The notes under the pieces are model-generated. The model searched no databases, was not told the DNA's origin, and worked only from the letters and a program-made list of their open reading frames with translations. From a virus (lineage: Duplodnaviria; Caudoviricetes): a stretch of DNA of 40,302 bases. The position numbers and the translations under genes are program-made. The stretch spans positions 1-40,302 of the IMG/VR virus record IMGVR_UViG_3300030104_002640. One strand, written 5' to 3'. Every line of letters begins with the position of its first letter. Position 1 is the stretch's first letter. Of this stretch, positions 7,345-39,729 are shown in pieces.

Positions 7345-7419
7345 TCCCAGGTAGCACAATGGTAGTGCATCTGACTGTTAATCAGAGGGTTACTGGTTCG
7401 AGTCCAGTCCTGGGAGCCA
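7345..7419 (+). tRNA. trnN: tRNA-Asn (GTT), complete with encoded CCA; probable attP core
   Basis: TCCCAGG/CCTGGGA acceptor stem, GCAC/GTGC D-stem, TCTGA-CT-GTT-AA-TCAGA anticodon arm, ACTGG-TTCGAGT-CCAGT T-arm, G discriminator, CCA. Confidence 0.96.
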
Positions 7420-17810: not shown

Positions 17811-18502
17811 TGGCTGAAGAAGATAATAGAAGCAGACATTTAAAAACAAAATTTGGATCATCTGTTACAAAACATAGAGCTGATGTTAAAAAAGGCAAAG
17901 CTACATTAAGTAGATCAAAATCTGATATTAAAAAATCTGTTAAAGCAGAAGTTTCAAAAAAATTAGGATTAACAGCTGTAGGTGGTTTAGGGGGAAATAG
18001 TGAAGGTTATATTGCTAGTAATTTAAAAGGAAAAGATAAATTCTTTTATGGCAAAGAAGCATCTAAATATACAAACGAAGCTCTTAAAAAATATTCTGGA
18101 ATGCACCTAGGTGGAAATGTTTATAGCAAAGATGCAATGAATATTAAGTATGGCAGCTCTGGAGGAGCTATGGGAAGTGGCGATCCAAGTGGAATTATGT
18201 CGAGTATTCCTATTTCAAAAAAAATGCAACAATCCCAAAACAAATTTTTAGGTTTAACATTAGCAGTTCTTGGTGGTGCTACTCCAGGATTAGGTGGAAC
18301 TGTTATGAGAGCAGTTGGTGCAAAAAATTTATCAGATGCAACATTAACATCTGGATCAGCTTATAATGAATACACACAAAAGTTTCAAACATTACAAAAG
18401 GGAAAAAAATTTACCAGCACTCGAAATCTATTTGGTTTATTAGGTTTTGATCAACATGGAAAGAAAACCAAAAAAGATACACTAGGTGGAGATCTCGAAT
18501 GA
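17810..18502 (+). CDS. Gly/Lys-rich putative virion protein
   Basis: Ends KKDTLGG like its upstream neighbour; coupled to the portal gene. Confidence 0.65.
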   Translation: MAEEDNRSRHLKTKFGSSVTKHRADVKKGKATLSRSKSDIKKSVKAEVSKKLGLTAVGGLGGNSEGYIASNLKGKDKFFYGKEASKYTNEALKKYSGMHLGGNVYSKDAMNIKYGSSGGAMGSGDPSGIMSSIPISKKMQQSQNKFLGLTLAVLGGATPGLGGTVMRAVGAKNLSDATLTSGSAYNEYTQKFQTLQKGKKFTSTRNLFGLLGFDQHGKKTKKDTLGGDLE

Positions 18503-20103
18503 AAACAGCAAAAGAATTATCAAATCAATTTAGTAAATTAAAAGGCAAACGACAAAACTGGGAAAGCCATTGGCAAGAAATTGCCGATTATGTTTTACCT
18601 AGAAGAGCTGATGTTAATAAATCTCGTTCATCTGGCGATAAGAGAACAGAATTTATTTATGATGGTACAGCTCTACACGCATCAGAGTTACTTTCCTCCT
18701 CTTTGCACGGGATGCTGACGAATGCAGCAACACCTTGGTTTAGTATGCGGTTCAAGAATGAATCATTGGCGATGGAAGAAGAAAGCAGAGAATGGCTCGA
18801 AGCCTGTACGCAAACTATGTACATTGCTTTAGATCGTTCCAATTTCCAACAAGAAATTCATGAATTGTATACTGACCTAGTTGTTTTTGGCACATCTGCC
18901 ATGATGATAGAAGAGGATGATGAAAAGTTTTTACGATTTTCCACCAGACACATAAAAGAATTTTTTATTGAAGAAAACGATAAAGGTTTTGTTGATACAA
19001 TACACAGAGAAATAAAAATGACTGCTAGAGCTGCTTATATGCGGTTTGGCGATGATTTATCAAAACGAGTAAAAGATCTAGCACAAAAAAAACCTTATGA
19101 CGAAATAACATTACATCATTGTGTAAAACCAAATGATGAAATGAACCCCTATAAAATTGATAATAAATCAATGGCATTTTCTTCCATTTATTATGATCAA
19201 GAAGATGCAAAAATAATTTCTGTTTCTGGATTTAATGAATTTCCTTTTGTTATTCCAAGATGGTTAAAATCATCATCTGAAATCTATGGAAGATCTCCAT
19301 CCATGACAGCTTTAGCCGATATTAAAATGATTAACAAAATGTCGGAAACAACAATTAAGGCTGCACAAAAAATGGTTGATCCACCTTTATTAGTTCCAGA
19401 TGATAGTTTTGTTTTACCAGTTAGAACACAACCAGGAGGATTAAATTATTTTCGTTCTGGTACAAGAGATAGAATAGAACCATTACAAATTGGAGCGAAT
19501 ACTCCAGTTGGATTAAACCTGGAGGATCAACGAAGAGAAGCAATACGACAAGCTTACTTTGTAGACCAATTACTCATGTCGCAAGATGTACGAATGACAG
19601 CGACTGAAGTTATGCAACGAAACGAAGAAAAAATGCGATTACTCGCACCAGTATTAGGTAGACTCCAAGCAGAAATGTTACAACCCCTTATTACTCGTAG
19701 TTTCAATATTATGTTGCGAAAAGGTTTATTACCAACACCGCCAACTGCATTACAAGGTACAACTGTTGATATTGAGTATGTATCTCCACTTGCAAGATCT
19801 CAACGAACTGGCGATGTACAAGCGATACTACGATCACTAGAAATTATAACTCCATTAGCACAACTAATGCCAGTTATGGATTATTTGGACTCTGATAAAC
19901 TTGTTAAACATATTACGGATGTATTAGGAGTTCCAAGAAAAGTTTTACGATCTGATCAAGAGGTTGCCGAGATTAGACAACAACAGCAAGAAGCTGCTGC
20001 ACAGCAACAACAACTTGATCAAACATCACAGATGGCTGAAGCTGGAGGTAGGGCAGCTCCTTTCTTGAAAGAGGTAAATAATGCCGAAGAGCAAACAACC
20101 TGA
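18499..20103 (+). CDS. Portal (head-tail connector) protein
   Basis: WQEIADYVLP...YGRSPSMTALADIK...MTATEVMQR..E...IEYVSPLA. Confidence 0.93.
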   Translation: MKTAKELSNQFSKLKGKRQNWESHWQEIADYVLPRRADVNKSRSSGDKRTEFIYDGTALHASELLSSSLHGMLTNAATPWFSMRFKNESLAMEEESREWLEACTQTMYIALDRSNFQQEIHELYTDLVVFGTSAMMIEEDDEKFLRFSTRHIKEFFIEENDKGFVDTIHREIKMTARAAYMRFGDDLSKRVKDLAQKKPYDEITLHHCVKPNDEMNPYKIDNKSMAFSSIYYDQEDAKIISVSGFNEFPFVIPRWLKSSSEIYGRSPSMTALADIKMINKMSETTIKAAQKMVDPPLLVPDDSFVLPVRTQPGGLNYFRSGTRDRIEPLQIGANTPVGLNLEDQRREAIRQAYFVDQLLMSQDVRMTATEVMQRNEEKMRLLAPVLGRLQAEMLQPLITRSFNIMLRKGLLPTPPTALQGTTVDIEYVSPLARSQRTGDVQAILRSLEIITPLAQLMPVMDYLDSDKLVKHITDVLGVPRKVLRSDQEVAEIRQQQQEAAAQQQQLDQTSQMAEAGGRAAPFLKEVNNAEEQTT

Positions 20104-26397: not shown

Positions 26398-29007
26398 ATG
26401 GTACAAATTCCAGTCTTTACATCTCAATCTTCTCCTAAACTAACAGCACCAGTTACAAGGGGAGTGCCTAATCTTGTTGGAGCAGCAATCCTGCCTTATG
26501 AACAAATATCTCGTTTAGGTAATACAATTTTAGATGTTGGACAAAAAAAATATCAACAAGAATTAAATTTTGAAAATCAAAAATATGAAGCAAAACTGGA
26601 TCATGATTTAAACTTAAAAAAATTAGCTTTAGATTTTGAATCAGAAGAATATGCAATTCAAAAGCAACATGAGATTGATTTATTTAAAGAAAATGAATCG
26701 TATAAAACTAATCTTTTAAAATTATCAAATGAATTAAAAGGCGAGTTTGAAATTAATAAAATAAAGATCCAACGAGAAAATAAAGTTAAACAAACAATCG
26801 CTGACTCCTGGGAACAAATTTATACACTCTCTGATATTGCTACTCGAGATCCAGATACAGAAAATGCTTTAAGTAATTGGGATAATGGAATTAAAAATTT
26901 AAGAAATGAATTAACCAGAGGAATTAAAGATCTTTATACTAAACAATTAATTGAACAAGAATTAGATGAAAATATTGCATTAGAGAGAGCAAAAGTTTCT
27001 TCTAACATTAATAAAAATGTTTTAGATCAATCAGAAATTATTTTTCAAAATGAAGTTGAAACTTTAAAAAATAATATTATTCGTAACCACTCACACTTTG
27101 ATATTATTAGTTTAGAAAAATTAATTGGCGAAAACTCTATTATTCATCAAAGAGCTGCTAAAGGAGAATTAAAATTAAAAGGAGTACCAGTAACTTCAGA
27201 TATTTATATTGAAGCTATTAAAAAAGATATTTTTACTGTCATGGGCGAAAACATGGCAAAAGACCAACCAGAGAGATTTAAGTTTTATAATCGACAAGGA
27301 TTTTGGGATGATAAATTAACACCAGAACTTATACAATCTTATGAAGATAAAGCTGATACAGCCATTGCATCAAAACTATCTAATCAAATTTCTAATCTTA
27401 AAGCTTCTGCTACCATACTAACAACATCGATTGATAATTTTATAAATCCATCTAAACCAGAATTTTTTGGCGATACTAATCAATACTTTACTTACAAATT
27501 ACAAGCTGAAGATATGATTAATGATTTAGTGTCTGTTGGAGAAAATGAAAAAGCTCAAAAACTTGCAATTAAACTTGATGCTTTAAATAGTGCTTTTATT
27601 AATCATAATGAAATTAAAAGATTGCAAGGATTACCTTTGGATGAAGTACAAGATATTTGGAGTTCTTTTAATCAAGAAGTTAAAAACAAATCTGGAACTG
27701 CTACAGTTAATTATTTTGGTAAAGAATTACCATATAATATTGGAACAGATCTTCTTGGTCATATTGAAAAAACCATGAACTATATGGAAACAGAGATTGG
27801 TGCTGGTCGTGTCATTGAAATGGCAGAAAGTTTTGGCATGAATATTCCAACTATAAATTGGATGGAATCTGATGCAAATAAGTTTGCACAAGAAGTTGAA
27901 ATATATCAAGCTTCTATGGGTTTTTTAATGAATAAATATGGTTTACCAGAAATGCCATTTTTTAGAGAATCAGATTTAGCACAAATTAATGAAGTTTTTA
28001 AAAATGGAAGCAAACAAGATATTTTACAACTAGCAAGTAATGTTTCAAAAATGTCTGGTATTTATGCAAATGATGCCTTTACTGATTTATCGAATAACTC
28101 CCCAGCTATGGCACACCTAGGTAAATTAATGAATATGAACAAAGGTGGTATGACACAGGCTACCGAGCATATTGTTGATGGTTGGATTGCAATGCGAAAT
28201 GATGAAACTGCATCATTAGTTGGTAAAGTTGGATTAAATGAAATAGGTAATCCTTATCTGGAAATATCTGAAACTATGCTGGGCGATATTTTAACAAATA
28301 CACCAGAAACTTTTACGCAAATAACAGATTCTTCTAAATTGATATTTGCTAATATGATTGCAGAAAATTCTGAATTACGACAACTAATTATTGATGATAA
28401 TGCAAATAATAAAAAACTACAAGAAGCCTGGAGAATGTCTATTCAATATGCAGCTGGAATGGTTGTTGATGGATCTGGAGCAAAAGGTGGAATAGAAAAA
28501 TTTAATGGCAAACCAATTATTATTCCACAAGAAAAACCAAATGGAACTTTAGATCAATTTAATTTAGCTGGTCAATTTAAAAGTAATGATGCTCCATCAT
28601 TAGAATTATTATTAGAAAATCATTTAACTGATGAATTATTATATGATGCAACAGCAACATTAAGTGTTGATGCAAGTGGAAGATCTGAAGATGTATTTCT
28701 TAATGGAATGCCATCTGACTTTGATGCAGATGGAAAATTTGTTCATTATATAGATGCAAAAGAATTATTTGATAATTATGAAAAAATTTATTTAGAAACA
28801 AATGAGTATGGCGAATACTTTATAACTTTTGGCGATCCTGGAGATCCAGCACATGAATATTATAAAACAAAAGATGGTAAAAAAGTTACTTTAAATATTA
28901 ACCGCATTTTACCAGCATTAATTAAATCTTATAAAGCAAATCCATCTGACTCAATAGATCCAAGAGATACTAAATTAAATATACCAACATATACAATGAT
29001 AAAATGA
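26398..29007 (+). CDS. Internal virion/ejection protein (gp15-like)
   Basis: Large helical protein starting MVQIPVF; position in the ejection block. Confidence 0.68.
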   Translation: MVQIPVFTSQSSPKLTAPVTRGVPNLVGAAILPYEQISRLGNTILDVGQKKYQQELNFENQKYEAKLDHDLNLKKLALDFESEEYAIQKQHEIDLFKENESYKTNLLKLSNELKGEFEINKIKIQRENKVKQTIADSWEQIYTLSDIATRDPDTENALSNWDNGIKNLRNELTRGIKDLYTKQLIEQELDENIALERAKVSSNINKNVLDQSEIIFQNEVETLKNNIIRNHSHFDIISLEKLIGENSIIHQRAAKGELKLKGVPVTSDIYIEAIKKDIFTVMGENMAKDQPERFKFYNRQGFWDDKLTPELIQSYEDKADTAIASKLSNQISNLKASATILTTSIDNFINPSKPEFFGDTNQYFTYKLQAEDMINDLVSVGENEKAQKLAIKLDALNSAFINHNEIKRLQGLPLDEVQDIWSSFNQEVKNKSGTATVNYFGKELPYNIGTDLLGHIEKTMNYMETEIGAGRVIEMAESFGMNIPTINWMESDANKFAQEVEIYQASMGFLMNKYGLPEMPFFRESDLAQINEVFKNGSKQDILQLASNVSKMSGIYANDAFTDLSNNSPAMAHLGKLMNMNKGGMTQATEHIVDGWIAMRNDETASLVGKVGLNEIGNPYLEISETMLGDILTNTPETFTQITDSSKLIFANMIAENSELRQLIIDDNANNKKLQEAWRMSIQYAAGMVVDGSGAKGGIEKFNGKPIIIPQEKPNGTLDQFNLAGQFKSNDAPSLELLLENHLTDELLYDATATLSVDASGRSEDVFLNGMPSDFDADGKFVHYIDAKELFDNYEKIYLETNEYGEYFITFGDPGDPAHEYYKTKDGKKVTLNINRILPALIKSYKANPSDSIDPRDTKLNIPTYTMIK

Positions 29008-29531
29008 ACAAAATAGATTGGAATTTTATATCCGAATTAGAGGGTAAGGGAGCAAATACTGGTTATGTGCCAACAAAAAATTCTGGTGTTACAGTTGCAA
29101 CTGGATTTGATCTAAAAGAAAAAGATGAAGAATTTTTATTAAAAATTGGCATCTCCGAGCCAACTGTTGCAAAGCTTCAAAACTTTTGTGGACTCTCTGG
29201 AGCTGAAGCTTCAGCTGTCGCAAAAGATTTAGTATTAAGTGATAAGGAAGTTTTGGAAATAGATCTGTGTAGTAAAAAATATTATGCTACAAGAATAATG
29301 AACCAATATAATAGCAGAGATCCAAAAGAAACTTTTACAAATTTAACTAAAGGACAACAAACAGTTATTGCTTCTGTTGGTTTTCAGTATGGTAGTTTTT
29401 CACGAACTCCATCATTTATTAAACACGCAGTTAATTCTGATTGGGATTTAGTGGATCGAGAGCTGCGAAATTTTGGCGATGACTTTGGTACTCGAAGAAA
29501 TAGAGAGGCAGAATACTTATGGGTAGTGTAG
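29004..29531 (+). CDS. Pesticin C-terminal-like muramidase (lysozyme fold)
   Basis: IDWNFISELEG...GYVP..NSGVTVATGFDL...QTVIASVGFQYG...ELRNFGD.F.TRRNREA. Confidence 0.8.
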   Translation: MNKIDWNFISELEGKGANTGYVPTKNSGVTVATGFDLKEKDEEFLLKIGISEPTVAKLQNFCGLSGAEASAVAKDLVLSDKEVLEIDLCSKKYYATRIMNQYNSRDPKETFTNLTKGQQTVIASVGFQYGSFSRTPSFIKHAVNSDWDLVDRELRNFGDDFGTRRNREAEYLWVV

Positions 29532-32500
29532 ATATTCCTAAAGATAAAGGTTTAGAACTTCATATTACAAAAACCATTTATCCAGATTCAAAACGAGTAG
29601 GTACAACTCCTACAAAAACTCCTTCTGGTTTTTTTTCAGATCCAACAAATAGAAATTATGGAGGTGCTACAGCTCTTACTTCGCCTAAAACATTAGGAGA
29701 TAATTTTGAATCTTCTTTTAGAGATTTAATAGATTTTGGAAGATCAGTATCTTCATACCAGGGAAAAGTAGAAGATTGGGAATTAGTCCAAAATGAATTA
29801 GAAACAAAATTTGGAATAGAGATTCCTCATTGGGAAGATTACATTCCAGAAATTGATGATCAATACAGATGGTCAAGACCATTTTCTAATTTTGGTGTTG
29901 ATGGAGCTGGTGGAAATATGATGCCAGAAGCTCCATTTGAAGTTAAAAAAAAATATTTAGAAAATTTAATTTCAATAGAATTAGACAAACTTGGGCCAGA
30001 AGCTAAAAAAAATTTTAAGGGATATGATCATTATTTTGATTTAAGAAAAAAACAAGCAGCTGATACACAAGAACAAATGGCTCTTAATATGCAGTATGCT
30101 GATAGTGGCTGGGATAAATGGGGAGGAATGTTATCTGGTACAGCTGTTGCTTCATTTCATGATCCACTTATTCTTGGCACTCTTCCTTTATCCATGGTGT
30201 ATGGGTGGCAAGGAGGAATTGTTTATGCCACAATGCGAACAGCTGCAATCGAAGCAATTATTGCTGGTGGTGCAGAAACTATTATACAATCACAAGTAGT
30301 ACCTTACAGACAATCACTAGGACAAGATTATGACTGGTCGGATGCAGCAAAAATAATTGGAACTGTATCTGCAACAAGTGGTGTATTTGCTGGAACTCTT
30401 ACAGCTAGTGTTAAAGGTTCAGCACAATTATATAAAAATGCACAAATGGCTTTAGCCAAAACAAATCCAGACATACGCAATAAAATTATTGGTAAAGAAT
30501 TTTGGAAAGCAGTTAATGAAAGAGGTTTTATAGAATTAACTGATATTGATAAAGCTACTGGAAATATAAAATTATTAGATAAAGTTCCTCCAGATGTTGC
30601 TTGGGAAATAATAAATAAAAATATTTCTGCTTTAGGTAAAAAGGAAATGCTTTTATTATTTAGAACATTACCAGATTCAATACAATTACACGCACCTTAT
30701 CAAAGTGCTGCTAGAGAATTAGAAGAAAAAATTTTAGAAGATGTTGATAATCCATTATCCAAAAACATAGAGGGTAATGTTGAACACATGGAGAGAACTA
30801 ACTCAACTTTGGAAAGTGTATTAAAAAACGAAGAACCTAAAATTCCAGAACAACCTAACTCTCAAATAGTCCTGGATGAAAAAAGACCAGTAATGAATCA
30901 TGTTAAAATGAATCCAGATGATATTGAAGTAGATGCAAAAACTTTTCAATTTAAAACTGGAGGCGATAGTAAAGGAGTTTTAACAACATTAAAAGGTATT
31001 GATAAATGGGATCATAATGCAGCTGGTACTGTTATGGTATGGGAAAGAGCTGATGGAAAATTTTTTATTGCTGATGGTCATCAACGATTAGGACTAGCAA
31101 AAAGAATTAAATCAAAAGATCCAAAACAAGATGTTTATTTAATGACAGTTGTTAGACGAGAAGCTGATGGCTGGAATGCAGAAGATGTTATGGTTGAGGC
31201 TATGACAGTTAATATTGTTGCTGCAACTGCAAAAGCAGAAGATGTGGCAAGAGTATTTTTACGAATGGGAGAAACTCACACAGCTAATATACTTGCTGGA
31301 AGAATTAAACCACAACAAGCTCTTTATCAAAATTCTCTTGGTTTATATAGATTAGGAGATGAAGCATTTAGATATTGGCTTAAAGGCGGAATAAAAGATA
31401 ATATTGCAGCACAAGTTGGACATATTGTTGATGATCCAGAATTAGCAATAAATGCTTTAAAACTTTTAGAAAAAGCAAAACCAGCTAATATTAATGAAGC
31501 AAGATCAATAATTAGATCTTTTTTAGATGCTGGAATAATAGAAACCACACAAACCGATATGTTTGGTGCTAGAATCATGAAACAGTCATTGATTGTAGAA
31601 AGATCCAAAGTTTATAGTAGTGCTTTACGAGAGCTAAAAAAAGATAAAACAATCTTTAAAGCTCTTGTGGAAAACGATGAAGCTATTATAAAAAGTGGTA
31701 GAAATAAATTAGATACAAACTATAATGTAGAAAAGGCAGAACAATATGGCATCATCATACACAAAATCGAAAAACTCGCAAATCGCAAAGGGCGACTCTC
31801 AGACGAGCTTACTGCAGCAGCAAAACTCTGGAAGTCTGGAAGTAAGCGAAAAGCAGTTGAGTCTTTTAAAAAAGCTGTCTACGAGTCGATTGAACGAGGC
31901 GATCACGAGGGGATTACTCCAAGCGGAAGTGAACGCAGTATCTTTGCTTCGCAATCGGAAAGTCCAGCTCGACAAAAACCAAAAGAAAACATAATCACAG
32001 AAAAGTTAAAGGTACATGACGATCCTCATGATACCAATGTAGCTGTTAAAGAAGCTGATGATCAGTTAGATATACTTAAAGAGGAGATCAAATCTGGAGT
32101 TGCTTCTGGAGAACGCAAAACATCTGATACAACAAAACCTTTAGAAAGTACCCAGGATGAATTTTTCCAAACAACAACTGCCTCTCCACCATCAACTGTA
32201 TTAGCTAAAGCTAAAGGTACTCCATCAGCATCTCGAATACTTGATGATAATTCAATCGGAGAATTTAAAACTGTTTTAGGCATAAATTATAAAATACTAC
32301 AAATATCTGATAGTGTCGATAATTTATATAAATTAGCAAACAAAAGTATCAAAGATATTGAAGCCTCTATTACTAATATAGCGATAAAATTTAAAAATGC
32401 AAAAGTTATTACAGATATTAAGAAAAAATCAGAATTAAAGAGAAAACTAAAAAATAGGCAAAATGACTTTGGAAAAGACTATGATATACGATTTATTGGC

Positions 32501-33085
32501 GATATTGCTAGAGGTCGTATCGTTCTTGAAAATTTAGATGAAGTTGTTGATGGTTTAAATATCGAAGGATGGCTGCGACAAAATTATAAAATAATTTCAA
32601 AAAAAGATTATTTTACAACACCAAAAGAGAGTGGATATAGAGCTACTCATTATCAGCTTGTAACAGAAGATGGATTGGCATTTGAGTTACAAGTACATCA
32701 TAAAGATTTATTAAATATTTATGATAAATTAAGAGATCTTCCAAGCTCTGCATATAATAAATTTAAAAATAGAAAATTATCAAAAAAAGAAAAAGCTGAA
32801 AGAATTAAATTAGTTGCAAAAGAAAAGAAAATTTTTGATGATACTTGGAGTAAAATTCAAGTTGAACAAAAAGGGTTACCAGAACAACGAGCAGTCGATA
32901 TTGGTTTATTTGATGCAACTGCAAGAAACCAATTAGATTTAACCGATGAAGTTGTAATGGATATTAAAACTGGAGCTGATGGAGAATTAGTACCAGACAC
33001 AAAAACATTAAAACAAGTTCTTGATGATGTTGAAGAAGATGACAAGATCATTAATTTCTTAAAAGACTGTCCAGGAATATCATGA
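29519..33085 (+). CDS. Polyvalent internal virion protein with ParB-like and RelA/SpoT synthetase-like domains
   Basis: VWERADGKFFIADGHQR (ParB/Srx-like); IKKKSELKRKL, IGDIARGRIV, KDYFTTPKESGYRATH, FELQVH (RelA_SpoT-like). Confidence 0.8.
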   Translation: MGSVDIPKDKGLELHITKTIYPDSKRVGTTPTKTPSGFFSDPTNRNYGGATALTSPKTLGDNFESSFRDLIDFGRSVSSYQGKVEDWELVQNELETKFGIEIPHWEDYIPEIDDQYRWSRPFSNFGVDGAGGNMMPEAPFEVKKKYLENLISIELDKLGPEAKKNFKGYDHYFDLRKKQAADTQEQMALNMQYADSGWDKWGGMLSGTAVASFHDPLILGTLPLSMVYGWQGGIVYATMRTAAIEAIIAGGAETIIQSQVVPYRQSLGQDYDWSDAAKIIGTVSATSGVFAGTLTASVKGSAQLYKNAQMALAKTNPDIRNKIIGKEFWKAVNERGFIELTDIDKATGNIKLLDKVPPDVAWEIINKNISALGKKEMLLLFRTLPDSIQLHAPYQSAARELEEKILEDVDNPLSKNIEGNVEHMERTNSTLESVLKNEEPKIPEQPNSQIVLDEKRPVMNHVKMNPDDIEVDAKTFQFKTGGDSKGVLTTLKGIDKWDHNAAGTVMVWERADGKFFIADGHQRLGLAKRIKSKDPKQDVYLMTVVRREADGWNAEDVMVEAMTVNIVAATAKAEDVARVFLRMGETHTANILAGRIKPQQALYQNSLGLYRLGDEAFRYWLKGGIKDNIAAQVGHIVDDPELAINALKLLEKAKPANINEARSIIRSFLDAGIIETTQTDMFGARIMKQSLIVERSKVYSSALRELKKDKTIFKALVENDEAIIKSGRNKLDTNYNVEKAEQYGIIIHKIEKLANRKGRLSDELTAAAKLWKSGSKRKAVESFKKAVYESIERGDHEGITPSGSERSIFASQSESPARQKPKENIITEKLKVHDDPHDTNVAVKEADDQLDILKEEIKSGVASGERKTSDTTKPLESTQDEFFQTTTASPPSTVLAKAKGTPSASRILDDNSIGEFKTVLGINYKILQISDSVDNLYKLANKSIKDIEASITNIAIKFKNAKVITDIKKKSELKRKLKNRQNDFGKDYDIRFIGDIARGRIVLENLDEVVDGLNIEGWLRQNYKIISKKDYFTTPKESGYRATHYQLVTEDGLAFELQVHHKDLLNIYDKLRDLPSSAYNKFKNRKLSKKEKAERIKLVAKEKKIFDDTWSKIQVEQKGLPEQRAVDIGLFDATARNQLDLTDEVVMDIKTGADGELVPDTKTLKQVLDDVEEDDKIINFLKDCPGIS
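31746..31994 (+). CDS. Nested +1-frame 82-aa ORF inside the polyvalent protein
   Basis: Host-frame GC3 rises to about 30/82 codons versus about 5/80 at 31322-31561; no TTA codons; TATAAT at 31721-31726 and AAGG upstream of the ATG. Confidence 0.6.
   Translation: MASSYTKSKNSQIAKGDSQTSLLQQQNSGSLEVSEKQLSLLKKLSTSRLNEAITRGLLQAEVNAVSLLRNRKVQLDKNQKKT
32062..32283 (-). CDS. Nested antisense 73-aa ORF, candidate antitoxin/immunity protein
   Basis: Globular-looking IRDADGVPLALANTVDGGEAVVVWKNSSW; the host frame here is an S/T/P-rich linker; TCGACA-N17-TATTTT lies 7 nt before the ATG. Confidence 0.55.
   Translation of the reverse strand: MPKTVLNSPIELSSSIRDADGVPLALANTVDGGEAVVVWKNSSWVLSKGFVVSDVLRSPEATPDLISSLSISN
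32291..32319 (-). promoter_or_regulatory. Sigma70-like promoter for a leaderless antisense transcript
   Basis: -35 TCGACA (32319-32314), 17-nt spacer, -10 TATTTT (32296-32291); TATAAT also at 32291-32286. Confidence 0.5.
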
Positions 33086-37735: not shown

Positions 37736-38635
37736 TTGACTTATATTGGACAACAGCCTAGCACTACTTTTGATTCTGGCATCCAGGATAGATTTACTGG
37801 TCTAACGACTAATACAGTAACTCTTAACCATGACATATCTGCTGAAGAAGATATACTTGTTGTATGGAATAATATTGTACAAGATAAGAATACTTATTCG
37901 GTTGGAGGTACTGGAAATAAAACTGTTACATTGGGTGGCACATTATCCTCATCGGATGTCGTAACTGTGTATTACTTAAATAAAGTAATGCAATCAGTTA
38001 ATCCTACTGCTGGTAGTGTTAGTTCTACTATTTTAGGTAGTGATATTTTATCTGGTCAAACTGATATTGGAGCAGATATTGCTGATGCAGATTTATTTTT
38101 AGTAGATGATGGAGCTGGTGGTACTGTTAGAAAAAGTGCTGCTTCAAGATTAAAAACTTATATTGGAAGTAACACTCCAGTTTTTGCAGCTTACTTATCT
38201 AATGACTCAGACCAATCTATTTCTGATTCTACTACAACTAAAATACAATTTGATGCAGAAAGAATTGATACTGCTGGTGCTTTTGATACATCAAATTATA
38301 AATTTACTGTTCCGTCTGGAGGAGCTGGAAAATATTTTATTGTATGTAAAGTTAAATGTGGTTCTTCTCAACAAAATGATATTGTTGGAGCATATGTTCA
38401 TATTTACAAAAACGGAAGTACATATCATAGTGTCGGATATACAGGAGCTGGTTTTATTTCTGGAACTAAATATCCTATATTAGGAATGGGTTTACTTTGT
38501 TCTACAGTTATAGATTTAGCAGCATCTGATTACATAGAGGGTTATGGATATATTAAAACAAATGGTGCTGGTACACCTAAATTCCAAGAAGGAAATGATC
38601 AATCAACATATATAGAAGGATTTAAGTTATTATGA
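37736..38635 (+). CDS. Secondary tail fibre with C1q-like C-terminal domain
   Basis: TYIGQQP anchor; PVFAAY...TKIQFDAE.ID...FDTSNYKFTVP...GKY...IYKNGS. Confidence 0.8.
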   Translation: MTYIGQQPSTTFDSGIQDRFTGLTTNTVTLNHDISAEEDILVVWNNIVQDKNTYSVGGTGNKTVTLGGTLSSSDVVTVYYLNKVMQSVNPTAGSVSSTILGSDILSGQTDIGADIADADLFLVDDGAGGTVRKSAASRLKTYIGSNTPVFAAYLSNDSDQSISDSTTTKIQFDAERIDTAGAFDTSNYKFTVPSGGAGKYFIVCKVKCGSSQQNDIVGAYVHIYKNGSTYHSVGYTGAGFISGTKYPILGMGLLCSTVIDLAASDYIEGYGYIKTNGAGTPKFQEGNDQSTYIEGFKLL

Positions 38636-38952
38636 GTTCATTAGCTAGTAAAATAAAAATATACTTAGGTAGAGAACCAGATTTTACATCAGAAGTAAAA
38701 CTACAAAATGATGGTAGTGGAGATTACATTAAAGAATGGAATATATCTTCTGAAAAATCTAAACCAACAGATTCACAACTAAATGCTGCTGATAGCGAAG
38801 CTACTAAATTAGAAAATAATAATAAAATTCGTGCAACTAGAAGAAATTTATATGGAGATATTGGCGATCAACTTGATGAAATATTTAAAGATATAGATGC
38901 TTGGAAAACAAGAATACAAAAAATTAAAACGGATAACCCAAAGGAAGAATAA
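38632..38952 (+). CDS. Tail fibre chaperone-like protein (paralogue of 154..501)
   Basis: YLGREPDFTSEVKLQND...IRATRRNLYGDIGDQLD. Confidence 0.72.
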   Translation: MSSLASKIKIYLGREPDFTSEVKLQNDGSGDYIKEWNISSEKSKPTDSQLNAADSEATKLENNNKIRATRRNLYGDIGDQLDEIFKDIDAWKTRIQKIKTDNPKEE

Positions 38953-39531: not shown

Positions 39532-39729
39532 ATGGCAATTTCAATAGCAGAAGCAATTTTACAAATTAATCCTAAAGCAGATGTTAGAGTAGCTAACAAT
39601 GATATTGATAGAATAGATTGGTATAATGGTACAGCAATCATTTCTAAAACTGATATACAAACTAAAATAACTGAAATGGAATCTGATCCTAAACCAGAAT
39701 GGATTCATCCAACAATAAAATATGATTAA
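39532..39729 (+). CDS. Small fibre chaperone-like protein
   Basis: AILQINPKADV...IDWYNGT..ISKTDIQTKI. Confidence 0.65.
   Translation: MAISIAEAILQINPKADVRVANNDIDRIDWYNGTAIISKTDIQTKITEMESDPKPEWIHPTIKYD

Follow-up and report, generated by a model that had tools for sequence, protein, structure and literature searches.

Putative antidote genes nested within a polyvalent ejection-block gene of a temperate podophage

The virus record IMGVR_UViG_3300030104_002640 (Duplodnaviria; Caudoviricetes), whose whole length of 40,302 nucleotides (nt) is the window analysed here, derives from a marine temperate podophage and contains, among its internal-virion genes, a gene for a polyvalent protein of 1188 amino acids (aa), hereafter the carrier. 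Here we report that the carrier gene holds two small overlapping open reading frames (ORFs), ORF-A in the +1 frame and ORF-B on the opposite strand, which are almost certainly real genes, and that nested genes in its relatives accompany particular enzyme domains. With a probability of about 0.6, we read the carrier as a polymorphic effector that virions deliver, each of its enzymes having a nested protein antidote, a reading built on comparison of sequences and predicted structures. Both nested frames show selection at the level of their proteins and keep to their respective domains; their products are interpreted as cognate antidotes.

In the mechanism that we propose, the virion-packaged carrier would be injected into the cell, delivering a ParB-fold module and a RelA/SpoT-type synthetase; ORF-B would block the synthetase and ORF-A the ParB module. 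ORF-B, transcribed from a host-type promoter of its own, would be expressed both in the lysogen and in the late phase, and ORF-A would most likely be translated from the late mRNA through internal initiation. The antidotes would thereby protect the virion-building cell, as well as a lysogen struck by kin virions. A newly infected cell, by contrast, would receive the enzymes as protein before any antidote could be made. Nesting would also turn each domain and its antidote into a single recombination unit.

Selection on the nested genes

A first-pass annotation of this DNA had proposed two nested genes pointing at each other in the inter-domain linker of the carrier, and both were found, convergent, where it had placed them (Table 1). 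The conservation of ORF-A was assessed in 167 related sequences; these comprised 128 distinct ones, 125 of which had sufficient length for scoring. Of the 125, 123 keep the +1 frame open over a 56-codon core, against 7.5 expected from synonymous recoding, and none (0/125) keeps the +2 frame open; both relatives lacking the full core have an ORF that begins a few codons later. The ATG position is kept in 111 of the 125, and a Shine-Dalgarno-like word occurs in 34 of the 125 (12.4 expected). From 70 of these relatives, 24 non-overlapping pairs were formed to compare substitution rates: changes silent in the host frame, that of the carrier, which alter ORF-A occurred at 0.033 per opportunity versus 0.173 in the adjacent control, a roughly five-fold suppression, and changes creating a stop in ORF-A numbered 0/371 versus 92/1799. 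Since the frame is kept open and is under purifying selection of its own, ORF-A is a selected protein gene. The GC content at third codon positions (GC3) of the host frame is 0.37 over ORF-A versus 0.14 across the carrier gene.

For ORF-B, 11 pairs gave a rate of 0.016 for changes affecting ORF-B only, 0.118 for doubly silent changes and 0.081 for changes affecting the host frame only. The host frame is therefore almost unconstrained here (0.081 vs 0.118) while ORF-B is constrained, so that the inter-domain 'linker' is in effect an antisense gene read backwards. The same rates in a second clade of RelA-bearing carriers (clade 2) were 0.054, 0.134 and 0.083, respectively, and all 23 upstream regions inspected in that clade contain a GGAG/GAGG-type Shine-Dalgarno sequence. 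The linker position first proposed for both genes holds only in part for ORF-A, whose first half overlaps the helices that end the ParB model (aa 743-800).

It might be argued that both nested frames are mere by-products of the host frame, or that the antisense region acts purely as RNA, given that the ORF-B frame shares its wobble positions with the host and is open by chance in 6-36% of 58-codon windows. Frame-specific purifying selection has already largely refuted this very improbable explanation, which would also leave the fixed starts, the ribosome-binding sites and the free-standing protein homologues described below unexplained. Two further frames, a 58-aa antisense ORF (31799-31975) and a 64-aa ORF (32857-33051), were treated as shadows, their starts and ends being variable.

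Nested genes and swapped domains

Across 566 carrier homologues the C-terminus is a RelA domain, a Zeta-like kinase (PF06414) or absent, and domains are swapped. A homologue of ORF-B lies upstream of the RelA domain in 23/23 carriers of the RelA clade to which the window belongs, and in L008, L084 and L087, where a further domain is inserted, it has moved along with RelA. In clade 2, an antisense ORF follows the RelA domain in 29/29 carriers and in one further locus, L158 (30/30). When 6102 alternative-frame segments were scored with the clade-2 profile, the window-type ORF-Bs came next in rank (E 0.013-0.7), and a profile-profile comparison of the two (hhalign) gave E 8.6e-4; by this weak link, the ORF-Bs of both clades probably form one family. 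Every RelA-bearing carrier, 53 of 53, thus has a genetically linked small partner gene, as is usual for toxic small alarmone synthetases (toxSAS).

Carriers without RelA behave accordingly. Among 72 of them a single one, L090, from which RelA has been lost, retains ORF-B, as a truncated half. In a distant set of 44 carriers keeping the DGHQR motif of the ParB module (42 from bacterial genomes and two from phage records), ORF-B is present in 6/6 RelA-bearing members, of which L172 is nearly identical to L146, and in 0/38 others. A search seeded with ORF-B-type proteins returned 13 viral loci, 12 with the gene nested just before RelA and one cut by a contig end. The check suggested in the first-pass annotation, whether ORF-B stays open solely beside its domain, therefore came out in its favour.

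Carriers with the Zeta payload contain a different ORF, in the +1 frame and with an ATG start, overlapping the end of the kinase in 47 of 48 cases, the single miss being truncated. Where the P-loop could be located (46 carriers), this ORF follows it by 142-145 codons, and the ORF is under selection (0.032 vs 0.153). The nested gene is thus swapped with the payload, because the Zeta payload brings a nested ORF of its own. This ORF (for example L030:6078-6278) represents a third nested family, of 49-76 aa and often with an F/YDYEEAExRA-like core. The coiled-coil inserts of L008, L084, L087 and L090-L092 showed no conserved nested ORF. One nested partner per enzyme domain would then be a general rule with exceptions, and the inseparability of nested gene and domain that had been suggested applies to ORF-B with RelA; the data do not support extending it to each ParB module, given ORF-A in distant carriers, or to each insert, given the coiled-coil ones.

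These patterns also bear on whether the nested proteins could be independent counter-defence or host-takeover factors, hitch-hiking in tolerant stretches of the carrier. Both are real genes with homologues outside the carrier, as such factors might be; still, in phages ORF-B occurs on either side of RelA and never apart from it, and the nested gene is swapped with the payload, which makes hitch-hiking a distinctly improbable account.

Enzyme domains and their putative inhibitors

The RelA/SpoT-like domain noted at first sight was confirmed by a match to PF04607 at aa 967-1061 of the carrier (E 2.8e-8). Its best solved relatives are GTP pyrophosphokinases of the RelP/RelQ type (E 8.6e-12), and it retains the motifs of a small alarmone synthetase, namely D, GYxxxH and ExQ with a basic first motif; K45, D72, G116, Y117, H121, E133 and Q135 are invariant in 20 sequences. 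We infer that the synthetase would act as a toxin or growth brake.

The FIADGHQR motif, likewise pointed out from the sequence as ParB/Srx-like, corresponds to aa 516-523. The surrounding region (aa 457-800) was modelled by AlphaFold with a predicted local distance difference test (pLDDT) score of 86.5, and the best Foldseek matches of the model were Noc (7nfu, E 3e-5) and ParB (6t1f). The D, G, H, Q and R of DGHQR are invariant across 41 sequences, and the module thus combines a ParB fold with the GxxR arginine of the ParB/Srx superfamily. Three sequences of the module had no Pfam match at E<=1, and remote DdrB-like membership is possible. Some relatives (L026, L053, L065, L067, L107, L110) bear a second small insert after the ParB module, with a DGNSTY motif, that we presume to be ParB/Srx-like; no conserved nested gene was established for it, the antisense frame being broken in L065 and L067.

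ORF-B is probably an inhibitor, or antitoxin, of the synthetase, judging from its linkage to that domain. Its predicted structure is a four-stranded sheet with two helices (pLDDT 75.7). A fold search against 48161 chains gave a best Z of 3.7, with neither the pZFD/ATfaRel2 nor the Tis1 fold listed, and comparisons with viral structures (no match at E<=0.001) and with the ESM Atlas (no usable match) were likewise negative; these null searches do not establish a new fold. No YXXY motif was found in ORF-B. Neither ORF-A, ORF-B nor their fusions matched Pfam, PHROGs, PADLOC or NCBIfam.

For ORF-A the case is closer, and its product may well be an inhibitor or antidote of the ParB module. ORF-A-like +1 frames occur in the carriers of two isolated-phage records, Ruegeria phage 45A6 (L213; E 0.0099) and SI2 (L214; E 1.2e-6), and are left unannotated in both. 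A search for ORF-A among longer proteins gave one match, apparently a frameshifted carrier.

Promoters and expression signals

Each nested gene had been credited with a promoter-like element, and both sites exist. Only that of ORF-B, a sigma70-like site, is supported by relatives: a similar site stands 5-12 nt before the ORF-B start in 17 of 25 loci, which are related, versus 6.3 expected from synonymous recoding. In the window, where the site stands 7 nt from the ATG, it would give a leaderless mRNA. The site before ORF-A is not conserved, its -10 box TAnnnT being found in 15 of 83 distinct upstream regions. By scanning alone, promoter-like sites in the region are not above chance (15 vs 19.6 in shuffled sequences). 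A terminator-like hairpin (31798-31780, minus strand) lies about 260 nt beyond the end of ORF-B, a weak signal, as two were found versus 1.6 expected.

The available RNA data consist of unstranded contigs from four runs, with sparse, scattered cover, and the runs were chosen with this region. One 273-nt contig from X3 spans 31747-32019, almost exactly ORF-A, and is at most a weak hint of its expression.

Free-standing and fused copies

Copies of the nested genes outside the carrier had not been foreseen in the first-pass annotation. A profile search with ORF-B returned 59 matches, two of them repeat artefacts and several of them nested ORFs that had been called as genes. In 12 of 64 separate proteins ORF-B continues in frame into the helical core of ORF-A (E 3.5e-12 to 3.8e-4), and such B-A fusions were also found in 31 of 109 further separate proteins; each joins in one frame what the phages code on opposite strands. 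In 8 of the 12 tested fusions both halves match one and the same phage subclade, across three subclades in all. Amplification chimeras were considered as a source of the fusions and are disfavoured by the large family, the single junction and identities of 77-99%.

The abundant marine B-A fusions include a 106-aa family (P0237 type) and P0126, P0128 and P0135, and some of them bear C-terminal hydrophobic, possibly membrane, extensions. Other ORF-B homologues (P0176, P0184, P0151, P0173) have tandem B domains or a subsequent EEAEDR motif, which recalls the Zeta-linked ORF; the profile of that ORF did not confirm the resemblance in these four proteins.

One ORF-B homologue, P0301, is annotated in a Pelagibacteraceae assembly. 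In the small, low-GC alphaproteobacterial genome G417, a free-standing 73-aa ORF-B (E 6.6e-10; L239:10242-10463, contig G417:C1) stands amid housekeeping genes, between tRNA-Ser and a PDC-M33 cluster with a type II restriction-modification system; the sole RelA match of this genome is on another contig. This one placed case and one label suggest that bacteria take over antidote genes, which then stand alone and in many cases are B-A fusions. For the fusions themselves, viral scans gave nested copies only, a GTDB pattern scan and annotated phages gave none, and genome samples gave 0/401, 1/42 (a sample searched twice), 0/1, 0/12 and 0/25 matches, with no fusion placed.

The carrier-free copies help to weigh an alternative in which each nested protein serves its own domain as a chaperone or an aid to packaging, keeping the domains unfolded or inactive for capsid loading, and the domains are non-lethal host modulators. 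The same co-occurrence and selection would be expected of such chaperones; ORF-A, with no conserved promoter, would be co-translated with the carrier, and it is dispensable in 31 of the 44 distant carriers. A promoter of its own on the antisense strand would bring a chaperone little, though, and carrier-free B and B-A copies, one of them in a defence island, better fit an inhibitor. We regard the chaperone explanation as unlikely, yet as the most serious competitor of the antidote reading.

Several observations weigh against that reading. The sampled phages are related and are not independent. The ORF-A profile matches just 13 of the 44 distant carriers, all of which keep DGHQR, so the ParB module can exist without ORF-A, and in the same set the Zeta-linked ORF accompanies one of four P-loop domains, the other three possibly being other domains. 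ORF-B resembles no known antitoxin in family searches. The arginine of the first synthetase motif is replaced by D or N in the subclade of the window, whereas it is kept in carriers of the L009/L016 type, and synthetase activity may differ in that subclade. Lastly, 4 of the 12 tested fusions are non-concordant in phage subclade, and just one free-standing ORF-B copy, that of G417, has been placed in a chromosome.

Evidence for virion delivery

The placement of the carrier gene in the ejection-protein block, as originally described, was borne out by PHROGs: it is flanked by internal-virion genes (phrog_308, phrog_418) and by a gene for a virion structural protein (phrog_684), which is the next gene and overlaps the carrier stop. 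The pesticin-type lysozyme gene preceding the carrier is fused to its N-terminus in close relatives (L002 and the P0009-P0018 type). The N-terminal region of the carrier has no family match of its own and is, we infer, its packaging or translocation part, and two of eight tested homologues weakly match the internal virion protein phrog_342 (E 0.0017 and 9e-5). Gene position and these weak matches in homologues suggest that the carrier is likely to be packaged in the virion and injected.

Alternatively, the domains could form a prophage-borne toxin-antitoxin defence of the toxSAS kind, expressed in the lysogen, with nothing injected and the location in a virion gene incidental. The phage does have an integrase, its synthetase matches the PADLOC candidate PDC-S33 (E 2e-10), and carriers are found in prophages of cultured alphaproteobacteria, such as those of Methylobacterium jeotgali (L185) and Bradyrhizobium (L186). 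The domains, however, are fused to an N-terminal region encoded in the internal-virion block, often together with a lysozyme, and are oriented like the late genes, showing no sign of being expressed separately, and we consider this explanation improbable beside that of an injected effector with nested antidotes.

Comparison with known systems

Phage polyvalent proteins are virion-associated and include DdrB-ParB, RelA/SpoT and lysozyme domains, according to the main text of Iyer et al. 2017 (PMC5512222). The carrier shares with them a multidomain, probably virion-associated product of a late gene, the ParB superfamily, RelA/SpoT, lysozyme fusion and domain swapping. It is coded among late virion genes and has at least two effector-type domains (ParB fold and RelA/SpoT, with lysozyme and Zeta variants in relatives). 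Its ParB module has no Pfam match at E<=1 and, with its helical part, a Noc/ParB fold; the supplements of PMC5512222 may bear on its family assignment. Nested and antisense genes set the carrier apart from that account, as 'overlap' and 'antisense' have 0 occurrences in the main text.

Apk2 MuF polymorphic toxins of temperate phages, with their IapK/Aph1 immunity (PMC12226406), are the closest functional precedent as far as the accessible part of that source extends. In common are a virion-associated carrier (probable here), a C-terminal alarmone-synthetase domain, a small cognate immunity protein (a candidate here) and a temperate phage. By contrast with Apk2 as described there, the present carrier belongs to a podoviral ejection block and not to MuF proteins (no MuF domain was matched in it by Pfam or PHROGs), the candidate immunity genes lie inside the carrier gene, antisense or in the +1 frame, where those of Apk2 lie directly downstream, several payloads each have a partner, and no hydrolase gene was seen.

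The toxSAS pairs FaRel2/ATfaRel2, FaRel/AT2faRel and Tas1/Tis1, as covered by the accessible part of PMC11782079, likewise combine a small synthetase domain with a small partner, and the alpha/beta partner here, of 70-75 aa, is close to ATfaRel2 in size. ORF-B differs from the partners described there: it lacks a YXXY motif, its best structural match reaches no more than Z 3.7, and it shares no operon with the putative toxin.

A literature search, with most subscription papers outside its reach, found no report of antidote genes nested in phage virion proteins. The relatives resemble the Epsilon/Zeta toxin-antitoxin systems in pairing a Zeta-like P-loop kinase (PF06414) with the gene of a small helical partner, and differ in that this partner is a +1-frame gene overlapping the kinase end inside a virion gene. 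Taken together, the carrier would resemble in its working those polymorphic toxins of phages that come with cognate immunity, and would belong to the polyvalent proteins, not to the MuF toxins. Both polyvalent proteins and the toxin-immunity pairs of the MuF kind have been described before; what sets the carrier apart from all of these is the nested partner gene per domain and its free-standing, fused copies.

Implications

If correct, the antidote reading would explain how cells build virions loaded with growth-arresting enzymes and why domains can be swapped freely, the antidote being inseparable from its domain. It would offer named partner proteins for polyvalent-protein domains whose role has been speculative since 2017, and add three small-protein families missed by annotation. 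Gene overlap would become a way to read function, and the free-standing fused copies would point to host defence that neutralises injected phage enzymes. As both an isolated phage and lysogens in culture possess carriers, the system is directly testable.

A wider proposal is put forward tentatively, as possible rather than probable: that the podoviral ejection proteins found in phages of marine alphaproteobacteria are polymorphic toxins with immunity genes inside the carrier, one per enzyme domain; that what look like 'linkers' in polyvalent proteins are antidote genes missed by annotation; and that hosts such as SAR11 repeatedly steal, invert and fuse these into poly-immunity genes in defence islands, as an acquired immunity against injected phage enzymes.

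Genome features

The AT-rich record of 40.3 kb codes for an integrase, a terminase, a T7-like head-tail connector, tail tubes and internal-virion proteins. Its GC content and one named homologue suggest an alphaproteobacterial host such as SAR11. The features of the carrier region are listed in Table 1.

Table 1. Features in and around the carrier gene (positions in the window)
Feature	Position	Strand	Basis or remark
Pesticin-type lysozyme gene preceding the carrier	29004..29531	+	PF16754
Carrier gene, 1188-aa polyvalent protein	29519..33085	+	ORF; internal-virion (ejection) block
Carrier N-terminal region, Gly/Ala-rich hydrophobic stretch at about aa 200-305	29519..30898	+	No family match of its own
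ParB/Noc-fold module with helical extension; DGHQR (GxxR) motif at 31064-31087	30887..31918	+	AlphaFold, Foldseek, alignment
Promoter-like site before ORF-A, 10/12	31699..31726	+	Weak; not conserved outside AT-rich clade
ORF-A, +1 frame, 82 aa, ATG start, conserved C-terminal helical core	31746..31994	+	Open frame, selection
ORF-B, antisense, 73 aa, ATG start	32062..32283 (gene reads 32283-32062)	-	RelA linkage, selection, model, free-standing homologues
RelA/SpoT-type small alarmone synthetase domain	32288..32860	+	PF04607, conserved motifs, solved relatives
Sigma70-like promoter 7 nt before ORF-B ATG, 9/12	32291..32319	-	Similar site in relatives

A tRNA-Asn(GTT) gene at 7345-7419 lies directly upstream of the integrase gene, in a possible attachment-site region; a host search with this tRNA gave 0 matches out of 251. 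Within the head-tail connector gene (18499-20103), an 83-codon window has a GC3 of 0.41 versus 0.21 gene-wide, possibly through another overlap or a recent swap. Three small phrog_9114/XkdW-like genes are distributed over both ends of the record (154-501, 38632-38952 and 39532-39729).

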